A stretch of DNA of 54,676 bases from Puniceicoccales bacterium (GCA_031278845.1 JAITJQ010000078.1:1-54676); one strand, 5' to 3'; positions 12,141-54,676 are shown, counted from the stretch's first letter. Translations and numbers: made by a program. Notes: a model not told the origin generated them from the letters alone.

Positions 12141-12641
12141 ATGTCGAGAGATTTAATGGTACAGGTAATCAGTGATTTTGGCCAAGAAATTGGCGCAGAA
12201 CTGGAGGTTGATGACGAAGCCTATTGCTGTTTAGCGGTGGGCGATGAATTTCAAATTCATCTAAAATTCAACGAGCATTTTAATGGAATGATTTTTTACA
12301 CCGAACTCGGTGAAGTCCCCAATATTGGGAGAAAAGAAGTCCTTCGCCACTACGTTATGCAGAATGGGGATATCGAATCTGATAATCTAACATTTTCCTA
12401 CGATGAAGAGAGTAAGCAACTGGGAATGGCACGCCTATTGCCGGTAGAATTTATAAACTTGGATAATTTAAAAAAGATTCTTGAGAAATTTATCGAACGC
12501 TATCAAAAGGAACACGAAGATATGGTACGGTTTTTACAGGGCGAGCTTCCGAAAGATGACATACAATTCGCAGATGATGGTGCCAATAGCGGTGAAGCTA
12601 TGCCAGCCGGCGGCCTAGATCCACAATTTATTCGCATGTGA
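12141..12641 (+). CDS. class I type III secretion chaperone (CesT/SycE-like)
   Basis: Small acidic protein. The N-terminus (FGQEIGAELEVDDEAYCCLAVGDEFQIHLKF) has the typical chaperone logic of describing a partner, with alternative-state wording. The size fits and it lies near T3SS genes. Assignment rests on pattern only. Confidence 0.55.
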   Translation: MSRDLMVQVISDFGQEIGAELEVDDEAYCCLAVGDEFQIHLKFNEHFNGMIFYTELGEVPNIGRKEVLRHYVMQNGDIESDNLTFSYDEESKQLGMARLLPVEFINLDNLKKILEKFIERYQKEHEDMVRFLQGELPKDDIQFADDGANSGEAMPAGGLDPQFIRM

Positions 12642-15872: not shown

Positions 15873-16003
15873 CGCTATAAAACATTCTGCAGATAATGTA
15901 TAAAGCGAAATGGAAATGGCAACTCAAACCGAATGGGTGTGAAATTTTTCTTAAAAACATTGACTCTCACAATTTTTCCCATTAAATCCGACTCCATCGT
16001 TTG
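15873..16003. promoter_or_regulatory. divergent promoter region between the gatekeeper and needle operons
   Basis: Plus strand: TTGACT (15959-15964), 17 nt, then TAAATC. Minus strand: TTGAGT, 17 nt, then TTTATA, read from the reverse complement. Sigma-70-like matches judged by eye only. Confidence 0.35.
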
Positions 16004-17485
16004 ATGGGATTAGTGCTCAAAGTATTGTCGGGACCACACCAAGGGGCGGAATTCGATGTTCCCGACGAAGAGATTGTTATCGGCGCTGCGGACGAGTGTG
16101 ATGTTATTATTAGTGATGTTTTGGTTGCCAATAAGCACGTGAATTTGAAGGTGGTCGATGGCCGTGTTTTTATTACGCCCCTCGAAGGAAATGTTTTCGT
16201 TGCCGGAAAATTATTGCGGGAGCCTTCGGCAATTGATAATTTCCAATTTGTAACCATTGGAGCTACCCATATGATGTTTGGTGAGGGTGAGAATGAGCAA
16301 TGGCAAACCGTTGCCCTGGGCGATTTCCCGGAGTTAGAAAAAGTTGAAGAGGCGGTTTCGATTTTCGCGGAGTCTGCGGAAGGTGTTCAGGAGGTTGTAG
16401 AGAGTGGTGCCGATACTGAGGAAAAGAATGAGGATGGGACGCCAAAGGAAAAAGAATTTGTGGCTGATTCCGCAGCGGCATTAATCGAAACAACGGAGCT
16501 TACCGATCGCGAAAGCAAAAAAGCGAAATTCTTAAGGAAAATTTTTGGTGAACGGCAGCTGACGTGGCGCCAAATCATCGTTCGCTACATTTTGGGTTTT
16601 GTACTGTGTTTAGCCATTGCCTTTGGAGCTTCCATTTCCCTGGTTGTTTTGACTCAGAAGGGACCCGTTCCCGCTCTTCCACAACCCATGGATGTGCGCG
16701 TACAAAAGGCCATCGATGCCCTAAAATTTAAAAATAAAATTAAAGTTTCGAAGCCGATCGGTGATGAACCGGTATCCGTTGTGGGTTATGTGGATAAGAT
16801 GGAGGATTCCGTCGCGGTGAAGTCGGCCCTGAAACCGATTTCGGAAGATATTTCCATCAAGCTTTTGGTTATGGAGAAAGTTTTGAGTAGTGCCATGGAG
16901 ATGGTCAAGGAATCGAAACAAAATATTGTTTTGAAACAGGCGGAAGAATTTGGAGAGTTGATTGCGACCGGGTACGTTAAGAAGGAAGAAGGTTGGACGA
17001 ATCTCAAATCGGAGGTTTCTTCCATTAAGGGAATTACGAACATTAGGGATGAGGTTTTGACGAGAACTTCCATTGTCGAATTGGCTAAAACGGTTCTCGA
17101 ACGCCATAAGTTTAGCGATAAACTGGAAGTTGCAGCCAACGATGAGGGCGTCGAAATCAGCGGTACTATCACCGATGCCGATAAGGATAAGTGGGGGGTA
17201 ACCCGTGAGGATTTCGAAAAGACATTCAAGAAGAAGGCACAGGTTAGTTTTAAAATTGCAGTGTCGACGGATCGCAATTTGACCATTGAGAAATTTTTCG
17301 GCGGAAAGATCGATAGCGTAAACTTCAACAGTCAAGGGTTGGATTGGGTAAATATAAAAGGTGGGACGAAATACTTCCAAGGTTCTGTACTGCCGGGTGG
17401 TTACGTTATCGATCGCGTCGAACAGGACAGTGTCACCATTCGTAATGCCGATGAGGTGATAACACTCGATTTGAACTGGATATGA
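16004..17485 (+). CDS. sctD: type III secretion inner-membrane ring protein SctD (YscD/CdsD family) with N-terminal FHA-like domain
   Basis: N-terminal FHA fold pattern (LKVLSGPHQGAEFDVPDEEIVIGAADECDVIISDVLVANKHVNLKV), an acidic linker, a single TM (ILGFVLCLAIAFGASISLVVL), and a ~270-aa periplasmic region. It is the first gene of an sctD-E-F-G-I order. Confidence 0.75.
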   Translation: MGLVLKVLSGPHQGAEFDVPDEEIVIGAADECDVIISDVLVANKHVNLKVVDGRVFITPLEGNVFVAGKLLREPSAIDNFQFVTIGATHMMFGEGENEQWQTVALGDFPELEKVEEAVSIFAESAEGVQEVVESGADTEEKNEDGTPKEKEFVADSAAALIETTELTDRESKKAKFLRKIFGERQLTWRQIIVRYILGFVLCLAIAFGASISLVVLTQKGPVPALPQPMDVRVQKAIDALKFKNKIKVSKPIGDEPVSVVGYVDKMEDSVAVKSALKPISEDISIKLLVMEKVLSSAMEMVKESKQNIVLKQAEEFGELIATGYVKKEEGWTNLKSEVSSIKGITNIRDEVLTRTSIVELAKTVLERHKFSDKLEVAANDEGVEISGTITDADKDKWGVTREDFEKTFKKKAQVSFKIAVSTDRNLTIEKFFGGKIDSVNFNSQGLDWVNIKGGTKYFQGSVLPGGYVIDRVEQDSVTIRNADEVITLDLNWI

Positions 17486-18561: not shown

Positions 18562-19029
18562 ATGGCAATAGAAGTAGCAGCAGCAACGGAGAGGATAGGT
18601 GGTGTGCTAGCGCGACAGGCAGCAAACGTCGGAGGAATTTCCGCTGGGACGATGATTGAGGGGGTTATTCCTCCATTTAGGGCAGACGTCGCCGGTGAAT
18701 TTCAAGCGATGGTGAATGGGGGCGTTACGTTACCCAACCTCAGTGGTGCTCTAAAAGGTGGTCGCAGAAGACGTCGACTCATAGAGCCATTGCGATTGAA
18801 TACACCGAGTCAAGGTGTTGTAAGTTCGATCCAAAGTGTGCGTGACAAATTTATGGAGATTCAACACAATGTTGAAGCGTTTGCAAGCAAGAAGGAGGAT
18901 CTTTCGAGTGGGGATCTTCTGAAGATGCAAGTGGATGTGATGCAACTGGCTTATTTGAACGAACTTTCATCGAAGGTAGCGGACAAGACGAGTCAAGGTG
19001 CGCAGACGTTATTCCGCAATCAGGGATAG
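18562..19029 (+). CDS. sctI: type III secretion inner rod protein SctI
   Basis: The C-terminus DLLKMQVDVMQLAYLNELSSKVADKTSQGAQTLFRNQG parallels YscI DLMLMQWSLIRITIQEELIAKTAGRMSQNVETLSKGG (from memory). 155 aa, and only 1 nt after the yscG-like stop. Confidence 0.75.
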   Translation: MAIEVAAATERIGGVLARQAANVGGISAGTMIEGVIPPFRADVAGEFQAMVNGGVTLPNLSGALKGGRRRRRLIEPLRLNTPSQGVVSSIQSVRDKFMEIQHNVEAFASKKEDLSSGDLLKMQVDVMQLAYLNELSSKVADKTSQGAQTLFRNQG

Positions 19030-28263: not shown

Positions 28264-29619
28264 ATGTTTGATAAAATTTTAATTGCTAATCGGGGAGAAA
28301 TTGCCCTACGTATCATCCGAACATGCCGTGAGTTGGGCGTAAAAACGTTGGCGATTTATTCGGAGGCCGATGAACAGTCGCTACACGTACAGTTAGCCGA
28401 TGAGGCGATTTGTATCGGTGCGGCTCCGGTCCCGGAGAGCTATTTGCGGGCGGATCGCATTTTTAGTGCGGCGGAGTTGGGCAATGTAGATGCCATCCAC
28501 CCGGGCTATGGCTTTTTGTCGGAGAATCCGATATTCGCAGAGCAATGTTCGGATTGTAAAATTAACTTTATCGGCCCCCGCCCCGAAGTGATTCGCCAGA
28601 TGGGCAATAAAGCCTGCGCTAAAGATATGGCAAAAAAGGCAAAGGTTCCCATTGTTCCCGGTAGCGAGGGAGTAATCGACAATGAAAATGAAGCTCTGAA
28701 AATTGCGGAATCGATCGGTTTCCCTATTATTATTAAGGCGGTGGCGGGTGGTGGTGGCAAAGGGATGCGTTTGGTCCACAATTCGGTTTCCTTTAGCAAG
28801 GAATTTAATGTTGCTCGGGTGGAAGCGGAGAAAAATTTCGGCAATGGAGCCGTTTATATTGAGAAATTCGTCGAGGATCCACGGCACATCGAAATCCAAA
28901 TCATTGGCGATAAACAGGGGAAGATTTTACATTTAGGCGAGCGGGATTGTTCGGTTCAGCGGCGGTACCAGAAGATCATCGAAGAGGCGCCGTCGGGATT
29001 TCTTGACGCGAGTTTGCGAGCTAAAATGGGCGATGCTGCCGTACGTTTAGCGAAGCAATGCGGCTATGAAAATGCGGGAACGATTGAGTTTTTAGTCGAT
29101 AGGCAGGGCAATTTCTACTTCATGGAAATGAATACACGCATTCAGGTGGAGCACGGCGTAACCGAAGAGGCGACGGGAATCGATTTGATCGACTTGCAGT
29201 TGCGCATTGCTGCCGGCGAAAAAATTCCTTTTGACCAGAAAAATATAAAATTTGTGAAGCATGCCATAGAATGTCGCATCAATGCGGAAGATCCGGAACG
29301 TAACTTTGCTCCTTGCCCTGGCGAAATTACACTGTACTACGCGCCGGGGGGTAATGGGATTCGCGTGGATAGTCACGTTTACGGAGGCTATCGGATTCCG
29401 CAGTATTACGATAGCATGATTGGGAAATTGATTGCGACAGGTAATGTGCGGGAGATTGCAATTAATCGGATGAGTCGGGCGCTTGGGGAATATATTATCC
29501 GGGGCATTTCGACGACCATACCGTTTGCGAAGGCGATTATGTCCGATGTCGATTTCCGTGCGGGCAACGTAACGACGAAATTTATTGAGGAATTTATGAA
29601 ACGCAATAGTCACGGGTAA
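28264..29619 (+). CDS. accC: acetyl-CoA carboxylase biotin carboxylase
   Basis: [22 protein letters not shown], the ATP-grasp Gly loop [12 protein letters not shown], and [12 protein letters not shown]-type [16 protein letters not shown]. Confidence 0.95.
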
Positions 29620-29736
29620 AGATTTGGGTTGGATTTGGGGGGATATTTTGATTGTTTACAACGGGAGATCCTTTATTTAATTTTTGTATTTTCTGTATCT
29701 TTTATTTTTTGTTGAGCAAGAGCTGCGCGGTTTTTT

Positions 29737-29850
29737 GGGGGCAAAAGCTGCGCGGTTTTACCGCGCAAGGCCTGGAGCGAAGCTCCAGGCCTTACAAGGA
29801 GCCTGCGGCTCCTTGGCTTTTGCCCCCAAACGCGCCCCTTCGGGGCGCGT
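29737..29850. repeat. GC-rich nested-palindrome element A (four-way-junction fold plus one extra hairpin)
   Basis: Outer stem GGGGGCAAAAG (29737-47) pairs with CTTTTGCCCCC (29817-27). It encloses three hairpins: 29749-67 (TGCGCGGT ttt ACCGCGCA), 29769-91 (GGCCTGGAGC gaa GCTCCAGGCC) and 29795-815 (CAAGGAGCC tgc GGCTCCTTG). An extra hairpin follows at 29830-50 (ACGCGCCCC ttc GGGGCGCGT). Confidence 0.8.
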
Positions 29851-29928
29851 AACATTAATTTAACATTGCAAGTCTCATTCCCTTGGATTTAACATTGCAA
29901 AGTCCCTAGCCCTCCCAATGATTCACCT

Positions 29929-31731
29929 ATGAATTCGCTGGATAAGATCCGCAATTTTTGCATCATCGCCCACATCGACCACGGAAAGACGACCTTATCC
30001 GATCGTCTATTGGAGTTTACGAATACGGTTCAGAAGCGGAAGATGCAGGATCAGCTATTGGATTCGATGGATTTGGAGCGGGAGCGTGGGATTACGATCA
30101 AGTGTCATCCGGTTTCGATGAAGTTAAAGCGTCCCAATGGGGAAGAATTTTTGCTCAATTTGATTGATACGCCGGGGCACGTCGATTTTTCCTACGAAGT
30201 TTCGCGGAGCATCGCTGCCTGCGAAGGCGCACTCCTACTGATTGACGCATCCCAAGGTATCGAAGCGCAAACGGTGGCCAATGCGAATTTAGCCATTGGG
30301 CAAAAAATGGTCATCATTCCGGTGCTCAACAAAATCGATCTACAGAGTGCGCAGCCGGACGTGGTATTGACGCAATTGGAGGACATTTTAGCCATACCGC
30401 GGGAGGAGGCGATTCGGGCGAGTGCGAAGTCTGGGATTGGTATTGAAGAAATTTTAGAAGCGGTAGTAAAGCGCATTCCGCAGCCGCGTTGGGCGGATTA
30501 CCCGCAGACCCGCTGTCTCGTCTTCGATTCCGTATTCGACGCCTACCAGGGCGTGATCTGTTATATCCGTGTATTTTCGGGTACGGTCAGGACGGGCGAC
30601 GAACTGCTGCTCATGGGGACGGGGCAGCGTATGCAGGTTAAGGATGTGGGTATTTTTTCGCCGCAGATGGTTTCGGCGGGCATACTTGAAGCGGGGCAGG
30701 TCGGGTTTATTGTGACGAATATTAAGAATGTGGCGGAGATCAAAATCGGCGACACGATTACCCATTTTGCCGATCTGGCGAAGGAAATGTTACCGGGGTA
30801 CAAGGAGGTGCGGCCCATGGTTTTCAGTGGCATTTATCCCATTGACACGCCGGATTATGAGAAATTAAAGGCGGCATTGGCGCGCTTGCAGCTAAACGAT
30901 TCGGCTTTGGTCTACCAATCGGAGAACTCGACGGCACTGGGCTTTGGCTTTCGCTGTGGATTTTTAGGGCTATTGCACATGGAAATTGTACAGGAGCGCA
31001 TCCGCCGGGAGTACGATCTGGACGTTATTTCCACCTATCCGAGCGTGGTATATAAGGTGATGAAGACCGATGGCATCGAATTACTGGTCGACAATCCGCT
31101 TCATTTACCGGAGCCTTCCTCCATCGATCACATTCAGGAGCCGATGATCCGGGCGATGATTCATATTCCCAACGGCTCCATTGGCGATATGTTGATGTTA
31201 ATTTCCGAGAAGCGGGGGACATGTCTGCGGACGGACACGGTGGATCAGAGTCGGGTCATGCTCTGCTGCGAGTTGCCATTGAACGAAGTTTTAGTGGATT
31301 TCAACGACCGCCTGAAGAGTATCACCAAGGGGTATGGGTCGATGGACTACGAATTGGACGAGTATAGGACATCGAATTTGGTGCGGATGGATTTACTGGT
31401 AAACGGCGAGGCGATCGATGCTTTTTCATCGATTGTACACCGGGACAAGGCGGTAGCCAAGGGGCGAGAATTATGTCAAAAGCTGAAAGAGATTTTACCG
31501 CGACAGCTTTTTGCCATAGCGATTCAAGCGGCCATAGGGAGTACGATTATAGCGCGGGAAACGTTAAGTGCGTTGCGGAAGGACGTGACGGCGAAGTGTT
31601 ACGGCGGAGATATTACGCGAAAGCGGAAGCTCCTTGAGAAGCAAAAGGAGGGTAAAAAGAAGATGAAACAAATCGGTAAAATATCGATCCCCCAGGATGC
31701 CTTTATCAAAATTTTAAAATCTTCCACCTAA
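29929..31731 (+). CDS. lepA: translation elongation factor 4 (LepA)
   Basis: IRNFCIIAHIDHGKTTLSDRLL G1 motif, DTPGHVDF, NKID, and the characteristic LepA C-terminal domain (KCYGGDITRKRKLLEKQKEGKKKMK). Confidence 0.96.
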   Translation: MNSLDKIRNFCIIAHIDHGKTTLSDRLLEFTNTVQKRKMQDQLLDSMDLERERGITIKCHPVSMKLKRPNGEEFLLNLIDTPGHVDFSYEVSRSIAACEGALLLIDASQGIEAQTVANANLAIGQKMVIIPVLNKIDLQSAQPDVVLTQLEDILAIPREEAIRASAKSGIGIEEILEAVVKRIPQPRWADYPQTRCLVFDSVFDAYQGVICYIRVFSGTVRTGDELLLMGTGQRMQVKDVGIFSPQMVSAGILEAGQVGFIVTNIKNVAEIKIGDTITHFADLAKEMLPGYKEVRPMVFSGIYPIDTPDYEKLKAALARLQLNDSALVYQSENSTALGFGFRCGFLGLLHMEIVQERIRREYDLDVISTYPSVVYKVMKTDGIELLVDNPLHLPEPSSIDHIQEPMIRAMIHIPNGSIGDMLMLISEKRGTCLRTDTVDQSRVMLCCELPLNEVLVDFNDRLKSITKGYGSMDYELDEYRTSNLVRMDLLVNGEAIDAFSSIVHRDKAVAKGRELCQKLKEILPRQLFAIAIQAAIGSTIIARETLSALRKDVTAKCYGGDITRKRKLLEKQKEGKKKMKQIGKISIPQDAFIKILKSST

Positions 31732-37479: not shown

Positions 37480-39237
37480 ATGCAAAATTTTGCGGAACAG
37501 TGTACGGATGTAGCCCGTTCGATTTTGAGTCACAATTTGGGTTACATCGATGAGGAAGGTAATATTCAGGTCGCGGACTACGAGAAACCTGTGGGCGATG
37601 AGGCGGCACACGTCGCATTTGCGCTCGGGGAGTACTATCGTTTGACGCACGAGACGAATTTTCTCCAGCACGACATCATCGATTTAGCGGCGAAAATGAT
37701 TGTTTATCAGTTGGAGAATGTGCCGAAAAGTAATGATTGGGGGGGCTACATCGCTTTAGCGCTACTATCTTTTGGGGCTGTTAAGGAGCGCAATCCGGTT
37801 TGGGAGAAACTTTCGGCGGAGGTGCGCATTCAACTGGACAATTTATTGATTCGTCGGGATGAGCTCAAGGGTAATGGGTTTGCGTGTGCGATTGCGAAGG
37901 CGGTTGCGCGGCACGGTTTGCGCATTACGAAAAAGGATGAAACGGGGAAATTGATCGATCGATTTCTTGCCTATTGCGAAGAGCATTCGACGGGTGGATT
38001 TTTTGATGGGGATAGAGGCAAGGGAATAGGGGGGAATTTCGACGTTAAGGGGCTATTTAATCTTTCGTTTATTCGTCAGGCGCTCCATCTACACACGGAT
38101 AATTTTTTCATTGAAAAAAAATTGCCCAGTCTACGCACCCATGCCGAAAAGTGCATTAATTTGATTCCGGATCTTATGCGGGAGGATGGTACCTGTTGGG
38201 TATATGGGGAATGTGTTGGAGCGTACGCGCAGATGTACTGTATTAGTACGATTTTGCAGGCGTTACGGGATCGTTGGATTGTTCCGGAGAAGCAGTCGTT
38301 ATACGTCAACATTGTCCTTGATTTATTTCAGAAGTTTTTCTGTCACTACATCGATCAGGAGAGCGGTTACATGGTAATTCGCGATGAGGAGCGTTCTTCT
38401 GGGGATGAGCAGAGTAGTATTCGGGCTAATTTTGATGCGGTACGTTATTTATGCCAGTGGTCACGGTTAACGCGGAAGAGTCCGATTGTTGCGGGGCGCA
38501 TACGTCGTGTTTCGGCATTTAAGCCAGGGAATCGGCTTGTTATTTTCGACAAGGGTTTGAAGCGGGAGAGTGGGTTATTTATTTATCGTGATGCGAAAAC
38601 GGGGATGAATTTGCAGCTGCCGTTAATTGGTAGCAATGGGCGGGCGGATAGCGATTGTCTAGCATTTCCGCATTGTCCGGGTGTTTTTGATTGGCCATCG
38701 GGGAAATACCTACCCATTTTGCAACCGGAGTTGACGATTGATGGCAGGCGTTATATTCCGTCCTACTACGGCAAGAAATTGTCGACGGGTTTAGGAAGTC
38801 ACGGGAATATTATTTTTGCCTACGAGCAGCCGGAGCTCATTACGGTAGAGGAGGAAATTGTGCCGGGGATAGCGAGTTGCAAAGTGGCGTGGATATTTTC
38901 GGAGACGAAGATAACGTCGGAGTTTACGTATACGGTGAAGGATCGCATACGCGTCGAGTCTTTGCGGTACATGATCGTGTTAAGTGCACCTCATTCGATT
39001 TATGGGGCGAACAATTTGGCTTTGGACGAGCAGAGTTTAGGGGCAATAGTGGAGCATGACGACATGATGTTGAGTTGGCGAGAGATTGTGGAAGTTGGTA
39101 GTGATATGGAGTATCGGACCTGCTATGGGAAAATTCATTATTTGCAGGAATTATCGCGGAGTTATCCATTGATCATGCATCCGGGGCAGCCGTATCGGTT
39201 GATTGTGAGTTTTATACCTGGAGTGATTCGTATTTAG
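37480..39237 (+). CDS. hypothetical 585-aa cytoplasmic protein, family not recognised
   Basis: Long clean ORF starting 14 nt after the rho stop. No signal peptide or TM. No motif I can name. Confidence 0.6.
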   Translation: MQNFAEQCTDVARSILSHNLGYIDEEGNIQVADYEKPVGDEAAHVAFALGEYYRLTHETNFLQHDIIDLAAKMIVYQLENVPKSNDWGGYIALALLSFGAVKERNPVWEKLSAEVRIQLDNLLIRRDELKGNGFACAIAKAVARHGLRITKKDETGKLIDRFLAYCEEHSTGGFFDGDRGKGIGGNFDVKGLFNLSFIRQALHLHTDNFFIEKKLPSLRTHAEKCINLIPDLMREDGTCWVYGECVGAYAQMYCISTILQALRDRWIVPEKQSLYVNIVLDLFQKFFCHYIDQESGYMVIRDEERSSGDEQSSIRANFDAVRYLCQWSRLTRKSPIVAGRIRRVSAFKPGNRLVIFDKGLKRESGLFIYRDAKTGMNLQLPLIGSNGRADSDCLAFPHCPGVFDWPSGKYLPILQPELTIDGRRYIPSYYGKKLSTGLGSHGNIIFAYEQPELITVEEEIVPGIASCKVAWIFSETKITSEFTYTVKDRIRVESLRYMIVLSAPHSIYGANNLALDEQSLGAIVEHDDMMLSWREIVEVGSDMEYRTCYGKIHYLQELSRSYPLIMHPGQPYRLIVSFIPGVIRI

Positions 39238-39246
39238 GTAGGCGGA

Positions 39247-39335
39247 CAAGGGGGAATCCTTCCCCCTTGGACCCCCTTGCTTTGGGGGCACTACTCCATG
39301 CAAATTACTCCATGCAGATTGCGTGGGGGTAGTGC
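39247..39335. repeat. GC-rich palindrome cluster C
   Basis: CAAGGGGGAA tcc TTCCCCCTTG (39247-69); CCCCC ttgcttt GGGGG (39272-88); GCACTAC (39288-94) pairs with GTAGTGC (39329-35), enclosing an 11-nt direct repeat TACTCCATGCA x2 (39292, 39306). Confidence 0.75.
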
Positions 39336-39440
39336 AATTGGAATAAAGAAAAATCTAGAATAAGAGGAAAAGACAGCCTCAAAATTTTTTTTGCAGAAAT
39401 TATTGGAAAAAGAGTTGACAGGCATGGTGAGTTTTCATGT

Positions 39441-40365: not shown

Positions 40366-41555
40366 CATCATACAATTATTGAAGAATTCCGGCATCCCGA
40401 AAAATTTGAACAAAATCCTCCAGATTCTCGCCATCGGGTACGGGTTGATTTTGAACGAAATCGCGCCAAACCTGCTCCACGAGATCTCTAGAAATGGAAT
40501 TTTGTTCAATACGCCCTAGGGATTTTTGCAAACTCTCATGATCAAGAAACCGCTCAATTAACCCATTTATCTGCCCCCATTGCAAGCCTTTCTGAATGCC
40601 TTCCTGCAAGCCTTCCTGCAAGCCTTCCTCTTTCTGCCGTTCCAGTTCTTCGTAGTAGGTAGCCACTTCCTGAACTTCTTCCGCGTAAGCCAACTGATCA
40701 TTCCAATTCAAACCACTAAATTTCAGCCTATCCAGCGCTCTAGCAATTTCCCGGGGCATGCCGATGTTTTGGTATTTTTGAATCTCATCCGCTGTGAACT
40801 TTCCCGAATCTTCCATTGCGTAAGACCACCATTCCGCTGCGGTGAGCGCTTCTCCCCTTCGCATTTTAGCGATAATTTCCTTTATTTTATCATCCCAAGA
40901 CTGCTCTATCGCATCCCTTATCTGCTTTTGATGTTGCCTCCATCCTAAGCTTTTCTGCCTGCTTGCTTGCAAGTCTTCCCGTTCACGGCATTCCATTTCC
41001 TGAGCCTCTTTTTCTAAATCTTCCATCATACAATTATTGAAGGATCCCAGCGTTTTGGAGAGTTTGAACAAAATCCTCCAGATTCTCGCCATCGGGTACG
41101 GGTTGATTTTGAACGAAATCGCGCCAAACCTGCTCCACGAGATCTCTAGAAATGGAATTTTGTTCAATACGTCCTAGGGATTTTTGCAAACTCTCATGAT
41201 CAAGAAACCGCTCAATTAACCCATTTATCTGCCCCCATTGCAAGCCTTTTTGAATGCCTTCTTGCAAGCCTTCCTGCAAGCCTTCCTCTTTCTGCCGTTT
41301 CAATTCTTCGTCGTAGGCAGCCACTTCCTGAATCTCTCCCTCGTAAACCTGCTGATCATCCCGATTCCAACCACTAAATTTCAGCTTATCCAAGGCCTCT
41401 GTTATTTCCTCGGGCATGCCGATGTTTTGGTATTTTTGAATTTCATTTTCTGTGAGTTTTTCCGAATTTTCTATCATGTAATACCACCATTCCGCTGCGG
41501 TGAGCGCTTCTCCCCGTTGAATTTTAGCAGCAATTTCCTTTATTCCCTCCAATTC
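40366..41555 (-). repeat. direct repeat: ~530-bp block present twice with a 660-bp offset (40366-40895 and 41026-41555)
   Basis: The first ~290 bp of each copy are nearly identical (catcatacaattattgaag...gccttcctctttctgccgtt), while the remaining ~240 bp are clearly diverged. A 17-bp relic of the block end, ATTATTGAAGAATTCCG, recurs at 40278. Confidence 0.85.
40376..41029 (-). CDS. stand-alone Rpn C-terminal-domain protein (lacks the PD-(D/E)XK nuclease domain)
   Basis: Starts at MMEDLEKEAQEM, 4 nt after the stop of the full-length gene; the longer ORF from 41167 is an out-of-frame artefact of the repeat. Residues from IKEIIAKMRRGEALTAAEWW to the end parallel the C-terminal 170 aa of the upstream Rpn protein, and the last ~95 aa are almost identical. 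Confidence 0.65.
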   Translation of the reverse strand: MMEDLEKEAQEMECREREDLQASRQKSLGWRQHQKQIRDAIEQSWDDKIKEIIAKMRRGEALTAAEWWSYAMEDSGKFTADEIQKYQNIGMPREIARALDRLKFSGLNWNDQLAYAEEVQEVATYYEELERQKEEGLQEGLQEGIQKGLQWGQINGLIERFLDHESLQKSLGRIEQNSISRDLVEQVWRDFVQNQPVPDGENLEDFVQIFRDAGILQ

Positions 41556-42116
41556 GATTTGGATCAAACAAATCCCTTCAATTTCTTGTTCCGAAAATTT
41601 ATCGGTCATACGATAATATTTCCGGAAACTACTATCCCTGAGTGTAGAATAATCAACAAACTGAATGGCATAAACATTTTTGATTTGTGAATGCCATTCA
41701 CTTCCTCCTTCAAATTCTTGATTGGCAAAGGTGGATGCCGCGTAAAATAGTGCCCGCTTGTCGAAATTATTGTGGCGGATAATTTGCATCTCGATGATGA
41801 CATGATCACGGTTATCGATGATGGCATGGTAATCTAGAATAGCGTTCGATCGCTTGCCTTGAAGCGGGATTCTCGTTTCCCCTTTACTGATAATTTGGAT
41901 GGGCGTAGCTATGTCCACAACTTTCATATCGCGGAAGATCTCATTAATGAGTGCCGTAGCGATGCGGTTATCCGACATCATGATTTTGAATGCCGTATCC
42001 GTCGTTGCCCTTACAAAACTGGTGGGTTTCTCGAATCTACGAACTAAACTCACTCCGGGTTCTAAAAATAAATGCTCTTCTCTAGACACGCCTATAAAAA
42101 TAGCATTTTGTCTCAC
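41034..42116 (-). CDS. Rpn/YhgA-like PD-(D/E)XK nuclease (recombination-promoting nuclease / putative transposase family)
   Basis: N-terminal FVRATTDTAFKIMMSDN, core ILDYHAIIDNRDHVIIEMQI....FDKRALFYAS (the D...E-x-Q/K pattern typical of this family), and a helical C-terminal domain. Confidence 0.7.
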   Translation of the reverse strand: MRQNAIFIGVSREEHLFLEPGVSLVRRFEKPTSFVRATTDTAFKIMMSDNRIATALINEIFRDMKVVDIATPIQIISKGETRIPLQGKRSNAILDYHAIIDNRDHVIIEMQIIRHNNFDKRALFYAASTFANQEFEGGSEWHSQIKNVYAIQFVDYSTLRDSSFRKYYRMTDKFSEQEIEGICLIQIELEGIKEIAAKIQRGEALTAAEWWYYMIENSEKLTENEIQKYQNIGMPEEITEALDKLKFSGWNRDDQQVYEGEIQEVAAYDEELKRQKEEGLQEGLQEGIQKGLQWGQINGLIERFLDHESLQKSLGRIEQNSISRDLVEQVWRDFVQNQPVPDGENLEDFVQTLQNAGILQ

Positions 42117-46085: not shown

Positions 46086-47210
46086 TTACTCTAAGGCATT
46101 AAAAAATTCTTGGGCAATGGCATCGCAGAGGAGGCGGCCTTTGGGGGTGAGGCGGATGCGTTGTTGTTGTTTCGTGAGGAGACCCTGGGTTTTGAGGTTA
46201 TCGACCAGGGATGCTACTTTTTGGCGAAAGATATTTTTCTCCAAATCTACGCCTTCGTTCATCCGTAGGCCGAAAATGATTTCATCGATGGCCAATATTT
46301 TTTTGTCTAACTTTATAACGTCCATTCGTTCCGGAGCATTGATTTCAAGTCCCGTGGCCCAGCGGTTTAGGGAGGCGATATTGGTATAACGTAGTCCACG
46401 ATATTGGCTACTTGCCGATGGTCCCACTCCAATCCATTCGTGCATGAGCCAGGTGTTGCGATTGTGTGCGGATGCATAGTTCCCTTTGCAGAAATTGGAA
46501 ATTTCATATTGCCGATAGCCGTGGGTTTCGAGGAATTCGCAAACCATTCCATAAAAATCATGGTCACGACTTTCGTCGGAACTGTTGCCCAATTTATTTT
46601 TTAGTATCGTGTCATCTTCGTAGGTTAGACAGTAGGTCGAAATGTGTTCCGGATTGAGGGCAATTGCCGCCGATAGATCGTCGAGCAATTGTTTGCTGGT
46701 TTGGCCCGGTGCGGAAAAAATGAGATCGATGCCGACATTGGCGAAACCTACCGAACGGACGAGTTCATGGGCATGAAAAATCTGTTGGGAGGTTTGTTTA
46801 CGGCCGAGCGTGCGCAGGATTGCTTCATTGAAACTTTGTACGCCCATCGAAATGCGATTGATTCCGGCGGCTTTCCAATGTTGTAGTTTTTCGACGCTGA
46901 CCGTGTTGGGCGCGATTTCTACGGTCCACTCCAATGGTATTCTGTGCATTTTTGAATGCAATGTTTGGGCAATTTGGTCGATGGCTTTGGGCGGTAGGAT
47001 TCCAGGGGTTCCGCCACCAAAATAAATTGTGTCGAAGGTGCGTTCGTCGTGAATGGATTGTATTTCCAGGAGGAGTGCGTATAAATAGCGTTCGAGATTT
47101 TGGTGAGATGGTAGTTCTTTATAGAAGGCGCAATAGTCACATTGTGTTGCGCAAAACGGTATATGTATATATAATCCGAGTGGCGTGTAAACTTTTTCTT
47201 GCCTATTCAT
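46086..47210 (-). CDS. hemW: radical SAM heme chaperone HemW (oxygen-independent coproporphyrinogen III oxidase-like)
   Basis: LGLYIHIPFCATQCDYCAFY CxxxCxxC radical-SAM motif, YFGGGTP, and an HemN_C-like C-terminus. Start at Met14 (MNRQEKVY) is preferred (ORF maximum 47249). Confidence 0.88.
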   Translation of the reverse strand: MNRQEKVYTPLGLYIHIPFCATQCDYCAFYKELPSHQNLERYLYALLLEIQSIHDERTFDTIYFGGGTPGILPPKAIDQIAQTLHSKMHRIPLEWTVEIAPNTVSVEKLQHWKAAGINRISMGVQSFNEAILRTLGRKQTSQQIFHAHELVRSVGFANVGIDLIFSAPGQTSKQLLDDLSAAIALNPEHISTYCLTYEDDTILKNKLGNSSDESRDHDFYGMVCEFLETHGYRQYEISNFCKGNYASAHNRNTWLMHEWIGVGPSASSQYRGLRYTNIASLNRWATGLEINAPERMDVIKLDKKILAIDEIIFGLRMNEGVDLEKNIFRQKVASLVDNLKTQGLLTKQQQRIRLTPKGRLLCDAIAQEFFNALE

Positions 47211-47236
47211 TGCTCCATAATTATGGTATCTGCAGC

Positions 47237-48217
47237 ATGAGTTTGTCATCGTATATTGGTAAAATTTTTTTTATAGTGAGTGTGCTTTTTTTGGCCGGTT
47301 GCGACGGCGAAAATATTTGCAATATGACTCCCAGTGTAATGCTTCAAAACCAATCGAATATCTATACCCTTACGATGGCCATCCGTGGTATGGATGGCGA
47401 TGTTTCGCAGAAAAGTATCAAACCTTACATAGTGGTTAATGGCGAAAAACATGAGATGAAAAAACATCCCGATGGCAATAACGTGTTTGTTTATGATTGT
47501 TACTTTTATGGTGTTGGTACGATTCCTTACTATTTCGAGGTGGTTTACGGGATGAATCGCAATGGTAGTATTCGGGAGAAAGTCACAAAATCTAAGTTAT
47601 TTAGTGCAACGGTGACGGATAAGTATATTTTTGCGTTGGATGCGAATCGTGGACCCGTTGGGGTGACTGTGAATGTCGTTGGTTACGGTTTGACAAGGGC
47701 GGATAGGGTGCGCTTTGGAAGGCGTATCGTGCCGACAAATTGGCTATCCGCTGGAGCAATGGAGTTCGTCGTTCCATCCGTTGAGTGCGATAACGAGTAT
47801 GAAGTGTACGTTTTGGCTAATCGGAAGGAGCTTTTTGCGGGAACGTTTTTCGTGGATGCATCGACGCTACGCTGCAGTACGGACTTTATTCGCCTCGCCA
47901 ATGGTGAAAGTCAACGTATTGTGTTTATGCTTGATCATCCGGCACCGGAAGAGGGTGTCGAAATCGAGATCACGACCGATATTCCCGATAGTATTGTTAT
48001 GCCGGAGGTACATTTTATATCGGGTGAGCGTACGGTAAGCGTCAATATTACGGGGGGTGAAGAATCGGCTAAGGGTACGCTATTCGCTCGAGCTAAGGGG
48101 TTTTCGTCGTTGGAAATTCCTTTGGAAGTCGGTGATGGGGCAGATGCGGTGGCTGTATCTAAAAAATTCTATCCCGATCGGTACGTTTGGGATGATGATG
48201 ATGTCGTCGTATTGTAA
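47237..48217 (+). CDS. lipoprotein with beta-sandwich (IPT/TIG-like) appearance
   Basis: The real start is MSLSSYIGKIFFIVSVLFLAGC, with lipobox LAG|C; the upstream 101 codons of the 427-aa ORF are antisense to hemW. The rest is beta-rich (VTVNVVGYGL..RVRFGRRIV..EFVVPS). Confidence 0.65.
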   Translation: MSLSSYIGKIFFIVSVLFLAGCDGENICNMTPSVMLQNQSNIYTLTMAIRGMDGDVSQKSIKPYIVVNGEKHEMKKHPDGNNVFVYDCYFYGVGTIPYYFEVVYGMNRNGSIREKVTKSKLFSATVTDKYIFALDANRGPVGVTVNVVGYGLTRADRVRFGRRIVPTNWLSAGAMEFVVPSVECDNEYEVYVLANRKELFAGTFFVDASTLRCSTDFIRLANGESQRIVFMLDHPAPEEGVEIEITTDIPDSIVMPEVHFISGERTVSVNITGGEESAKGTLFARAKGFSSLEIPLEVGDGADAVAVSKKFYPDRYVWDDDDVVVL

Positions 48218-48364: not shown

Positions 48365-48448
48365 GCTTTTGTGCACCCGTGGAGGCTTCGCCTCCTGACC
48401 TTTTTTCAAAAGGTTTTGCGGTTTCACCGCAAACGGGTGCACAAAAGC
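48365..48448. repeat. GC-rich nested-palindrome element B (four-way-junction fold)
   Basis: 16-bp outer stem GCTTTTGTGCACCCGT (48365-80) pairs with ACGGGTGCACAAAAGC (48433-48). It encloses GGAGGC ttc GCCTCC (48381-95), ACCTTTT ttc AAAAGGT (48398-414) and TTGCGGT ttc ACCGCAA (48416-32). Confidence 0.85.
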
Positions 48449-54532: not shown

Positions 54533-54624
54533 GGTAATGGATAAAAAGCTTACGATTCCCTATGAGAAGGAAAGCGATAAAAGTTTTTTTCGTAGCCGAA
54601 GCTGCCCAAGGGGGTTCCGGCTGC

Positions 54625-54676
54625 CCAGGGGGGCTCTGCCCCCCTGGACCACCCGCAAGGAGTCGGAGACTCCTTG
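54625..54676. repeat. GC-rich palindrome cluster D (truncated by window end)
   Basis: CCAGGGGGGC tct GCCCCCCTGG (54625-47) and CAAGGAGTC gga GACTCCTTG (54656-76). They use the same stem vocabulary as elements A and C. Confidence 0.75.

Follow-up and report, generated by a model that had tools for sequence, protein, structure and literature searches.

What kind of object is the set of nested palindromes lying between accC and lepA in a Puniceicoccales bacterium? The DNA studied is a contig of 54,676 nucleotides (GCA_031278845.1, JAITJQ010000078.1), called the window below, and the palindromes, an outer stem around three hairpins, are called element A. All coordinates are those of the whole window, and loci from relatives are numbered from L001 onward. 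Small palindromic repeats are common in bacteria, but how they arise, spread and are maintained is understood for only a few families linked to REP-associated tyrosine transposases (RAYTs; REP, repetitive extragenic palindrome). Genomes are expected to delete or degrade perfect palindromes. We put the probability at about 0.7 that element A is a resident member of a family of nested perfect DNA palindromes that spans the lineage of termite-gut Puniceicoccales and is akin to REPs, bacterial interspersed mosaic elements (BIMEs) and REPINs (REP doublets forming hairpins). The family is without known tags and, so far, without a known enzyme, and it builds nested four-way palindromes. One of its sites can be followed through approximately 10% divergence of LepA, so that the survival of perfect palindromes becomes a testable question. 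Such repeats might also be misread as phase-variable switches or novel RNAs.

Element A spans 29734-29830 and consists of an outer stem around three abutting perfect hairpins with 3-nt loops (H1, H2 and H3, Table 1). The original prediction, made from the sequence alone, had given an outer stem of 11 bp; the stem exists and is perfect, but inverted-repeat detection found 15 nt of 100% complementarity. The three inner hairpins with loops ttt, gaa and tgc are likewise present and perfect, although the stem of H2 (11-12 bp) exceeds the 8-10 bp first assigned to it. The fourth hairpin, H4, was recovered as described, with 9 bp and a ttc loop, and a scan for perfect hairpins found all the stems of H1-H4 to be Watson-Crick throughout. 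RNA folding, proposed as a check, gave an identical four-way junction plus H4 from either strand, at -101.2 and -98.1 kcal/mol (z = -9.5 and -9.6); the DNA folding energy is -62.7 kcal/mol (z = -13.6). The window holds eight perfect GC-rich hairpins with a stem of at least 8 bp and a 3-nt loop, whereas 100 dinucleotide shuffles averaged 0.32 and never exceeded 2, and all eight fall within the four loci named by the original prediction.

The genes flanking element A were identified by Pfam/NCBIfam scans as accB, accC and lepA. The element lies 118 nt past the stop codon of accC and 79 nt ahead of the start codon of lepA. The loci of close relatives were obtained through LepA homologs. Four of them, L137, L133, L136 and L023 (LepA 94%, 95%, 92% and 90% identical, respectively), carry element A at the same accC-lepA site. 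Three others, L135, L138 and L139 (LepA 87%, 87% and 84%), have empty syntenic sites with no hairpin, and their accC-lepA spacers are 48, 48 and 66 nt long. These three are very compact genomes (L135 is CP095464.1, 878,461 bp), whose spacers at the positions of element A and of element B, a second four-way nested palindrome in the window, measure 0-66 nt. Presence in four relatives and absence from three more distant ones points to a gain in the ancestor of one sub-clade. As read from these loci, element A was gained in that ancestor between the end of accBC and the lepA-proximal motif described below, and has been inherited vertically since. Element B has orthologs in L140, L141 and L142 and a paralogue in L020, and copies of the family in general vary in presence or absence between relatives.

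Vertical descent allows the stems to be followed. In the five orthologous copies of H2 + H3, 99% of the cells in the stems are paired; four pairs have changed, each in both partners and never in one alone, and all three loop positions are variable. At this divergence, approximately 10% in the LepA protein, the flanking genes are 72-85% identical in nucleotides. Neutral decay would leave many mismatches and one is seen, so pairing is actively maintained. H1 occurs in the orthologs as compensatory variants or, in L023, in the collapsed form TGCGCGCA, and H4 in L137 is GCGCGCCCC gtc GGGGCGCGC, a compensatory change. Covariation, which had been proposed as a test of the family, was thus found in the orthologous H2 + H3, and also in the alignment of 30 doublets presented below.

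The loop of H2 is gaa in the window and ttc, its exact complement, in L137. On a larger scale, whole interiors are reversed. Compared forward, the interior of element A has an identity of 0.88 with L137 and 0.75 with L133. The values for L136 are 0.55 forward and 0.82 reverse-complemented, and those for L023 are 0.60 and 0.73. For element B the forward identity with L142 is 0.91, while L140 gives 0.55 forward and 0.96 reverse-complemented, and L141 0.54 and 0.95. In BLAST alignments, too, B matched the opposite strand (96-97.5% identity) between flanks that are co-linear at 90-91% (L140) and 74-79% (L141). Orientation is out of step with relatedness, which suggests more than one flip. Judged from these alignments, the interior has been reverse-complemented between its outer arms more than once. 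Smaller rearrangements accompany the hairpins. The 14-mer said to be duplicated at 29721 and 29746 is indeed exact at both positions, and the repeat extends over 19 nt with a single mismatch (29716-34 against 29741-59); the duplication is absent from the orthologs L137 and L133 and so marks a recent local event. Half-hairpin tandem duplications, ie a left arm plus loop, lie beside family hairpins at 29716-29740, at 54599-54631 and in L017 (5700-5780), and suggest slippage or template switching at hairpins.

Whether pairing is maintained in DNA or in a transcript can be approached through the mismatches. No G-U pair occurs in the window stems of A and B, and among the copies at other loci one exception was seen, a T-G pair in H2 of L136. 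Sixty-two hairpins with one mismatch comprised 15 G-T, 14 A-C and 33 transversion mismatches, transversions thus being as frequent as transitions; when the sense strand of the closest gene was taken as reference, the figures were 7, 10 and 19, respectively, with no surplus of G-T over A-C. In the second doublet hairpin, read on its canonical strand, G-T mismatches had seemed to outnumber A-C by 13 to 1, a candidate sign of selection on RNA that was dropped in view of the 15 and 14 of the broader and cleaner set. The doublet, ie the CAAGGAG hairpin with its second hairpin, is found in both orientations relative to genes, and where a gene ends within approximately 100 nt of it the order is usually stop codon, GGGGC hairpin, CAAGGAG hairpin. 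The loops GAA/TTC and GGA/TCC are the commonest among 365 GC-rich perfect hairpins, found in 392 kb of loci from related metagenome-assembled genomes (MAGs) plus the window; in DNA, triloops of the form GNA are unusually stable when closed by C-G. Persistence through inversion, the equal folding of the two strands, the near-absence of G-U and the mismatch spectrum point to maintenance at the DNA level, and on these grounds we infer that the palindrome is kept as DNA rather than as the fold of one RNA strand.

The element does not stand alone. A pattern scan with the CAAGGAG hairpin, CAAGGAGNCNNNGNCTCCTTG, covered 185,579 species genomes and matched at least 106 loci; over half of the matches listed are in eight termite-gut Puniceicoccales MAGs, and many sit at contig ends. 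The free pair of the hairpin is T-A in 63 of the 68 copies from those MAGs, and its 3-nt loop is variable. Across MAGs the hairpin is embedded in a conserved mosaic of different palindromes in a fixed module order with conserved linkers. The modules include GCCCGCGGC, a hairpin of approximately 17 bp (GCGGCCAAACCATGCGAA), CAAGGAGTC, CCAGAGGGC or ATGGGGC, CTAAGGGC and CCAGGGGAT. L096 and L082 contain tandem mosaic units of approximately 257 bp, in L071 the mosaic forms a nested, near-perfect palindrome of 176 nt (985-1160), and the right end of the window (54625-54676) is a canonical piece of this mosaic. Palindromic units, conserved linkers and clusters or tandem arrays, the marks of a BIME, are therefore all present. 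L137 carries a nine-hairpin array behind lepA, which the window is without. The proposed dispersed family of REP/BIME-like or MITE-like (miniature inverted-repeat transposable element) nested palindromes is borne out by at least 63 CAAGGAG hairpins in related MAGs, by four-way designs at unrelated loci and by differences in presence between relatives.

Many matches from outside the Puniceicoccales share the doublet form GAGGT-CAAGGAGSC nnn GSCTCCTTG-YGGG-[xxGGGGC rrm GCCCCxx]. Its hosts outside the Verrucomicrobiota are Acetobacteraceae, Rhodospirillales and the isolate Novispirillum itersonii (Alphaproteobacteria), Synergistaceae (L034, L065) and Defluviitaleaceae (L035). Pairing reaches 98% in an alignment of 30 copies, and seven of nine pairs in the second helix have changed on both sides; these copies were picked for a perfect second hairpin, so that the lack of G-U there is partly by construction. 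A covariance model of the doublet matched 54628-54676 of the window with 47.2 bits (E = 6e-14). It also matched H3 + H2 of element A over its full length (34.4 bits, E = 1e-9), so that H3 + H2 is a diverged doublet. The model finds the same pair in L023, L133 and L137, and also in L136, where the match lies on the other strand, as predicted by inversion of the interior. In 16-22 kb of the compact relatives there are essentially no GC-rich perfect hairpins and no matches to the model. Second, non-seed doublets form inverted pairs with the first at seven alphaproteobacterial loci (L014, L030, L050, L075, L077, L087 and L104), and in the Synergistaceae loci L034 and L065 a T-run follows the second hairpin. 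A search of the literature for GAGGTCAAGGAG turned up nothing but primer sequences from unrelated eukaryotic work.

The four-way design also recurs. The window and loci L001-L106, searched for outer stems around at least two abutting hairpins, contain four such structures: A and B of the window and one each in L016 and L020. The copy in L016 (7298-7381) is of type A, with GGGGCAAAAGC arms, and lies 19 nt past the stop codon of an unrelated 655-aa open reading frame (ORF). That in L020 (5035-5107) is of type B, with GTGCACCC arms and the same three hairpin types, and lies between unrelated convergent ORFs. The outer arms of these paralogous copies are identical and the interiors only 0.54-0.70 identical; the core GGGGCAAAAGC is the same in L137, L133, L136, L023 and the non-orthologous L016.

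In its anatomy, element A has an outer inverted repeat of 11-15 bp around three abutting palindromes, of which H2 + H3 are the diverged CAAGGAG doublet, and a fourth palindrome alongside. The constraint would act on the DNA palindrome, in which both strands must pair. Extrusion of a hairpin or cruciform, with intrastrand templating by template switching or quasipalindrome correction, would keep the stems perfect, and recombination between the arms would flip the interior. Quasipalindrome correction is an established mutational mechanism.

Several results weigh against this reading. The conservation of element B, loops included, exceeds what is expected of a selfish or neutral repeat, and perfect stems with compensatory changes are equally expected from selection on RNA structure. 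A handful of copies without covariation had been named as the mark of a spurious family; the family is large and covariation is present, but the four-way types amount to only six type-A and five type-B copies in total, with the source genome represented by 54.7 kb. A metagenome scan for type-A arms (GGGGCAAAAGC N45-75 GCTTTTGCCCC) gave 26 loci, none with a three-hairpin interior, and these were rejected as copies since all are unrelated long inverted repeats. No mobiliser was found: tblastn with RAYT and IS200 TnpA sequences (approximate queries) gave nothing better than E = 0.86 in approximately 0.76 Mb, ie the window plus 710 kb of loci, and all-against-all clustering for a recurrent ORF near the arrays yielded nothing beyond housekeeping orthologs and spurious read-through ORFs. 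Of 438 hairpins, 5 have GTAG nearby and 6 have CGTC, with neither in A or B, and no direct repeat that could be a target-site duplication surrounds any of eight copies. As a separate observation, a metagenome contig of 41% GC (L109) holds at 979-1075 a 97-nt near-perfect palindrome starting with the GGGGCAAAAGC word.

The best of the rival explanations is a true REP/REPIN system, in which the hairpins are substrates of a RAYT (an IS200/IS605-type Y1 HUH transposase) encoded elsewhere in the genome. It would explain why the palindromes are short, GC-rich and extragenic and are arranged as mosaics and inverted pairs, and the words AGGT, GGGT or GAGT at the 5' feet of the doublet hairpins recall a guide or cleavage tag. 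Opitutus terrae, another member of the Opitutae, has a genome rich in GTAG REPs (PMC3733652). We nevertheless consider it unlikely. The two tags are as rare as just described, the RAYT/IS200 search was negative within an incomplete genome sample, and the stems are perfect, whereas cleavage by the E. coli RAYT was abolished once the REP palindrome was strengthened (PMC3733652). No HUH transposase appeared in Pfam/NCBIfam scans of 40 window ORFs; the only transposase-like match among them was PD-(D/E)XK 'PDDEXK_2' (Rpn-type nuclease/putative transposase) in ORF 41034-42116 on the minus strand. An overlapping minus-strand ORF, 40376-41167, clusters with it by BLAST and has no Pfam match, and both are present in L133 and absent from the compact relatives. 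Of the class first proposed, the dispersed palindrome family stands, and strict membership of the REPs (no GTAG/CGTC tag, and no RAYT in the sequences searched) or the MITEs (no target-site duplication) does not.

A structured RNA, ie a cis-acting 3'-untranslated or intergenic element or a small RNA whose four-way junction is selected, for example for stabilisation or processing of accBC mRNA, is distinctly improbable. The extreme stability of the fold, the compensatory changes that keep it across orthologs and, for the doublet, across phyla, the position just 3' of genes, and the conservation of B beyond that of its flanking genes would all suit such an RNA. The element persists, however, with its interior reverse-complemented in L136, L023, L140 and L141; the two strands fold equally well, and copies occur in both orientations relative to genes. 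G-U is missing from the window stems of A and B, with the T-G pair of L136 H2 as the single exception elsewhere, and decaying hairpins have no sense-strand tolerance of it. Loops of 3 nt leave little room for specific recognition of RNA. Rfam 15 at the gathering threshold found two tRNAs only in the window, and a permissive scan of the locus nothing better than E = 0.8; tRNAs alone were found in 18 related loci, and the CAAGGAG doublet is not represented in Rfam. The check for a known family at the locus was thus negative, and the structured RNA of unknown class offered originally as the alternative is not favoured, given copies in both orientations and no sense-strand preference for G-U.

A programmed invertible switch, in which a site-specific recombinase flips the interior and alters expression of lepA or its neighbours, is very improbable. 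It would draw on the flanking inverted repeats of 11-16 bp, on the occurrence of either orientation among close relatives and on outer arms that are more conserved than interiors between paralogous copies. The interior is only 54-67 bp long and palindromic, however, so that a flip alters just the order of the hairpins and their 3-nt loops. There is no sigma-70-like promoter inside it and no recombinase gene next to A or B, and the conserved motif before lepA lies outside the element. That motif, TTTAACATTGCAA, occurs twice downstream of element A and upstream of lepA, at 29859-29871 and 29888-29900, 29 nt apart. One copy is kept before lepA in every ortholog, even with a 48-nt spacer, and it is probably a lepA promoter element, as judged from this conservation; a consensus scan found no sigma-70-like promoter.

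The consensus scan of 29550-29980 also found no terminator-like site on either strand; the bases after the stems are CAAAC and TAACAT, in agreement with the earlier remark that no U-tract follows any hairpin. An ordinary intrinsic terminator, or a terminator stack for accBC, is as improbable as the switch, for although the site follows the accC stop codon and precedes the conserved lepA-proximal motif, and the Synergistaceae doublets L034 and L065 do have a T-run behind the second hairpin, none of the four hairpins is followed by a U-tract on either strand, relatives do with a 48-nt accC-lepA spacer and no hairpin, and the nested four-way design and dispersed family are left unexplained.

A DNA palindrome that maintains itself could still be of use to its host. 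Element B is 93-98% identical between relatives, including its loops, in a setting where the flanking genes are 74-91% identical and the surrounding spacers are of very different length. Self-correction alone should not yield such conservation, which suggests selection on B. Copies lie at the end of an operon before the lepA-proximal motif, between a convergent gene pair and just past stop codons. From these positions, the elements may form very stable, orientation-independent barriers at gene 3' ends, against read-through and 3' exonucleases, and the conservation of B beyond its neighbouring genes suggests that hosts may use it in this way. By analogy with REP/BIME elements, for which such roles have been described (PMC3333891, PMC2817692), they may alternatively be DNA structural or protein-binding sites. 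A broader proposal, which we regard as possible and put forward tentatively, is that the CAAGGAG doublet and its nested derivatives constitute an undescribed class of self-maintaining DNA hairpin modules, copied by something other than a RAYT and in part recruited by hosts. Such a class would be common to at least four lineages (Verrucomicrobiota, Alphaproteobacteria, Synergistaceae and Defluviitaleaceae). Copying would fall to a non-RAYT enzyme that recognises perfect hairpins with AGGT/GGGT feet in single-stranded DNA, the perfection of the modules and their flipping would come from templating in cruciforms or hairpins, and hosts would recruit copies such as B as symmetric insulators between genes.

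Table 1. Components of element A and other family copies in the window. Stems are written as left arm, loop, right arm.
Feature	Position	Strand	Description
Local duplication	29716..29740		25 nt, diverged; 19 nt with 1 mismatch copy the junction of outer arm and H1 left arm
Outer repeat of element A, left arm	29734..29748		TTTGGGGGCAAAAGC; core GGGGCAAAAGC
H1	29749..29767		8 bp, TGCGCGGT ttt ACCGCGCA
H2	29767..29793		11-12 bp, AAGGCCTGGAGC gaa GCTCCAGGCCTT; counterpart of the second hairpin of the doublet
H3 + H2, doublet model match	29769..29823	-	Full length
H3	29795..29815		9 bp, CAAGGAGCC tgc GGCTCCTTG; CAAGGAG signature hairpin of the family
Outer repeat of element A, right arm	29816..29830		GCTTTTGCCCCCAAA
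H4	29830..29850		9 bp, ACGCGCCCC ttc GGGGCGCGT; lepA side, outside the junction
Single family hairpin	39247..39269		CAAGGGGGAA tcc TTCCCCCTTG; 10 nt past the stop codon of ORF 37480-39237
Element B, four-way nested palindrome	48365..48448		16-bp outer inverted repeat and three hairpins
Canonical doublet	54625..54676	-	CCAGGGGGGC hairpin and CAAGGAGTC hairpin, cut by the contig end

The original prediction had placed the same architecture at the site of element B, and this was confirmed, with three hairpins (GGAGGC, ACCTTTT and TTTGCGGT) that all carry a ttc loop. Element B lies between convergent genes, one for a 326-aa protein and the other for ACPS. On its left, ORFs 46086-47249 (minus strand) and 46934-48217 (plus strand) overlap by 316 nt; the plus-strand gene probably starts near 47237, as its close homolog P0121 is 326 aa long. 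The common stem words reported at 39247 and 54625-54676 were found as well. The hairpin at 39247, of a type found also in L082 and L106, belongs to a cluster of approximately 100 nt (39240-39345) after the same stop codon, which further holds a CCCCC/GGGGG hairpin and two copies of the direct repeat TACTCCATGCA. This cluster is absent from L133, L136, L044 and L135 and present only in the lineage of the window, so it is a recent gain. The right end of the contig falls inside the CAAGGAGTC hairpin, and contigs of related MAGs often end at family hairpins too, which suggests that the assembly broke at the repeat; these repeats fragment MAG assemblies. Elsewhere in the window, at 12141-12641, 16001-17485 and 18562-19029, are genes for a CesT-type chaperone and for type III secretion (YscD-like and YscI-like); the relatives L134 and L133 have ankyrin-repeat and type III secretion needle genes. 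Together these genes suggest a host-associated lifestyle.

Compared to the REP and BIME sequences of Enterobacteria and Pseudomonas (PMC3733652, PMC3333891, PMC2817692), the family likewise consists of short GC-rich extragenic palindromes in many copies, mostly just downstream of genes. It also shares mosaics with conserved linkers, both orientations, breaks in assemblies and presence that differs between relatives. It differs in that its stems are perfect rather than imperfect, that GTAG/CGTC foot tags are lacking and that no RAYT was found. Its modules, moreover, are nested in a further outer inverted repeat to give a four-way junction, and distinct palindromes stand in a fixed order where BIMEs have alternating Y and Z REPs.

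REPINs (PMC3116915, PMC3337134) are resembled in two ways, by family doublets that face each other in inverted orientation across a spacer and fold as a single long hairpin, and by long vertical persistence at orthologous sites. Such pairs were found in the family (L071 and the seven alphaproteobacterial loci), but A and B are built differently, since their outer arms are separate words and not the repeated palindromes, and the interior is three independent hairpins. To our knowledge, no single-copy RAYT is associated with this family.

Like MITEs (PMC3184786), elements A and B are small (84-97 bp) and non-coding, and their terminal inverted repeats are identical between unrelated loci (window and L016, window and L020). 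The outer repeats are not paired with a target-site duplication, however, no matching transposase was found, and the interior is wholly palindromic. In the hairpin-associated inversions of plastids (e.g. PMC6824564), short inverted repeats also enclose a small segment that occurs in either orientation, recurrently and independently of phylogeny; here the setting is bacterial, the flipped segment is three perfect hairpins, and the unit is part of a dispersed family. The general kind, that of REP, BIME and REPIN sequences, is known, and what is new here is a nested four-way palindrome whose building block is a two-hairpin unit found across phyla, and which has been kept perfect while flipping repeatedly.

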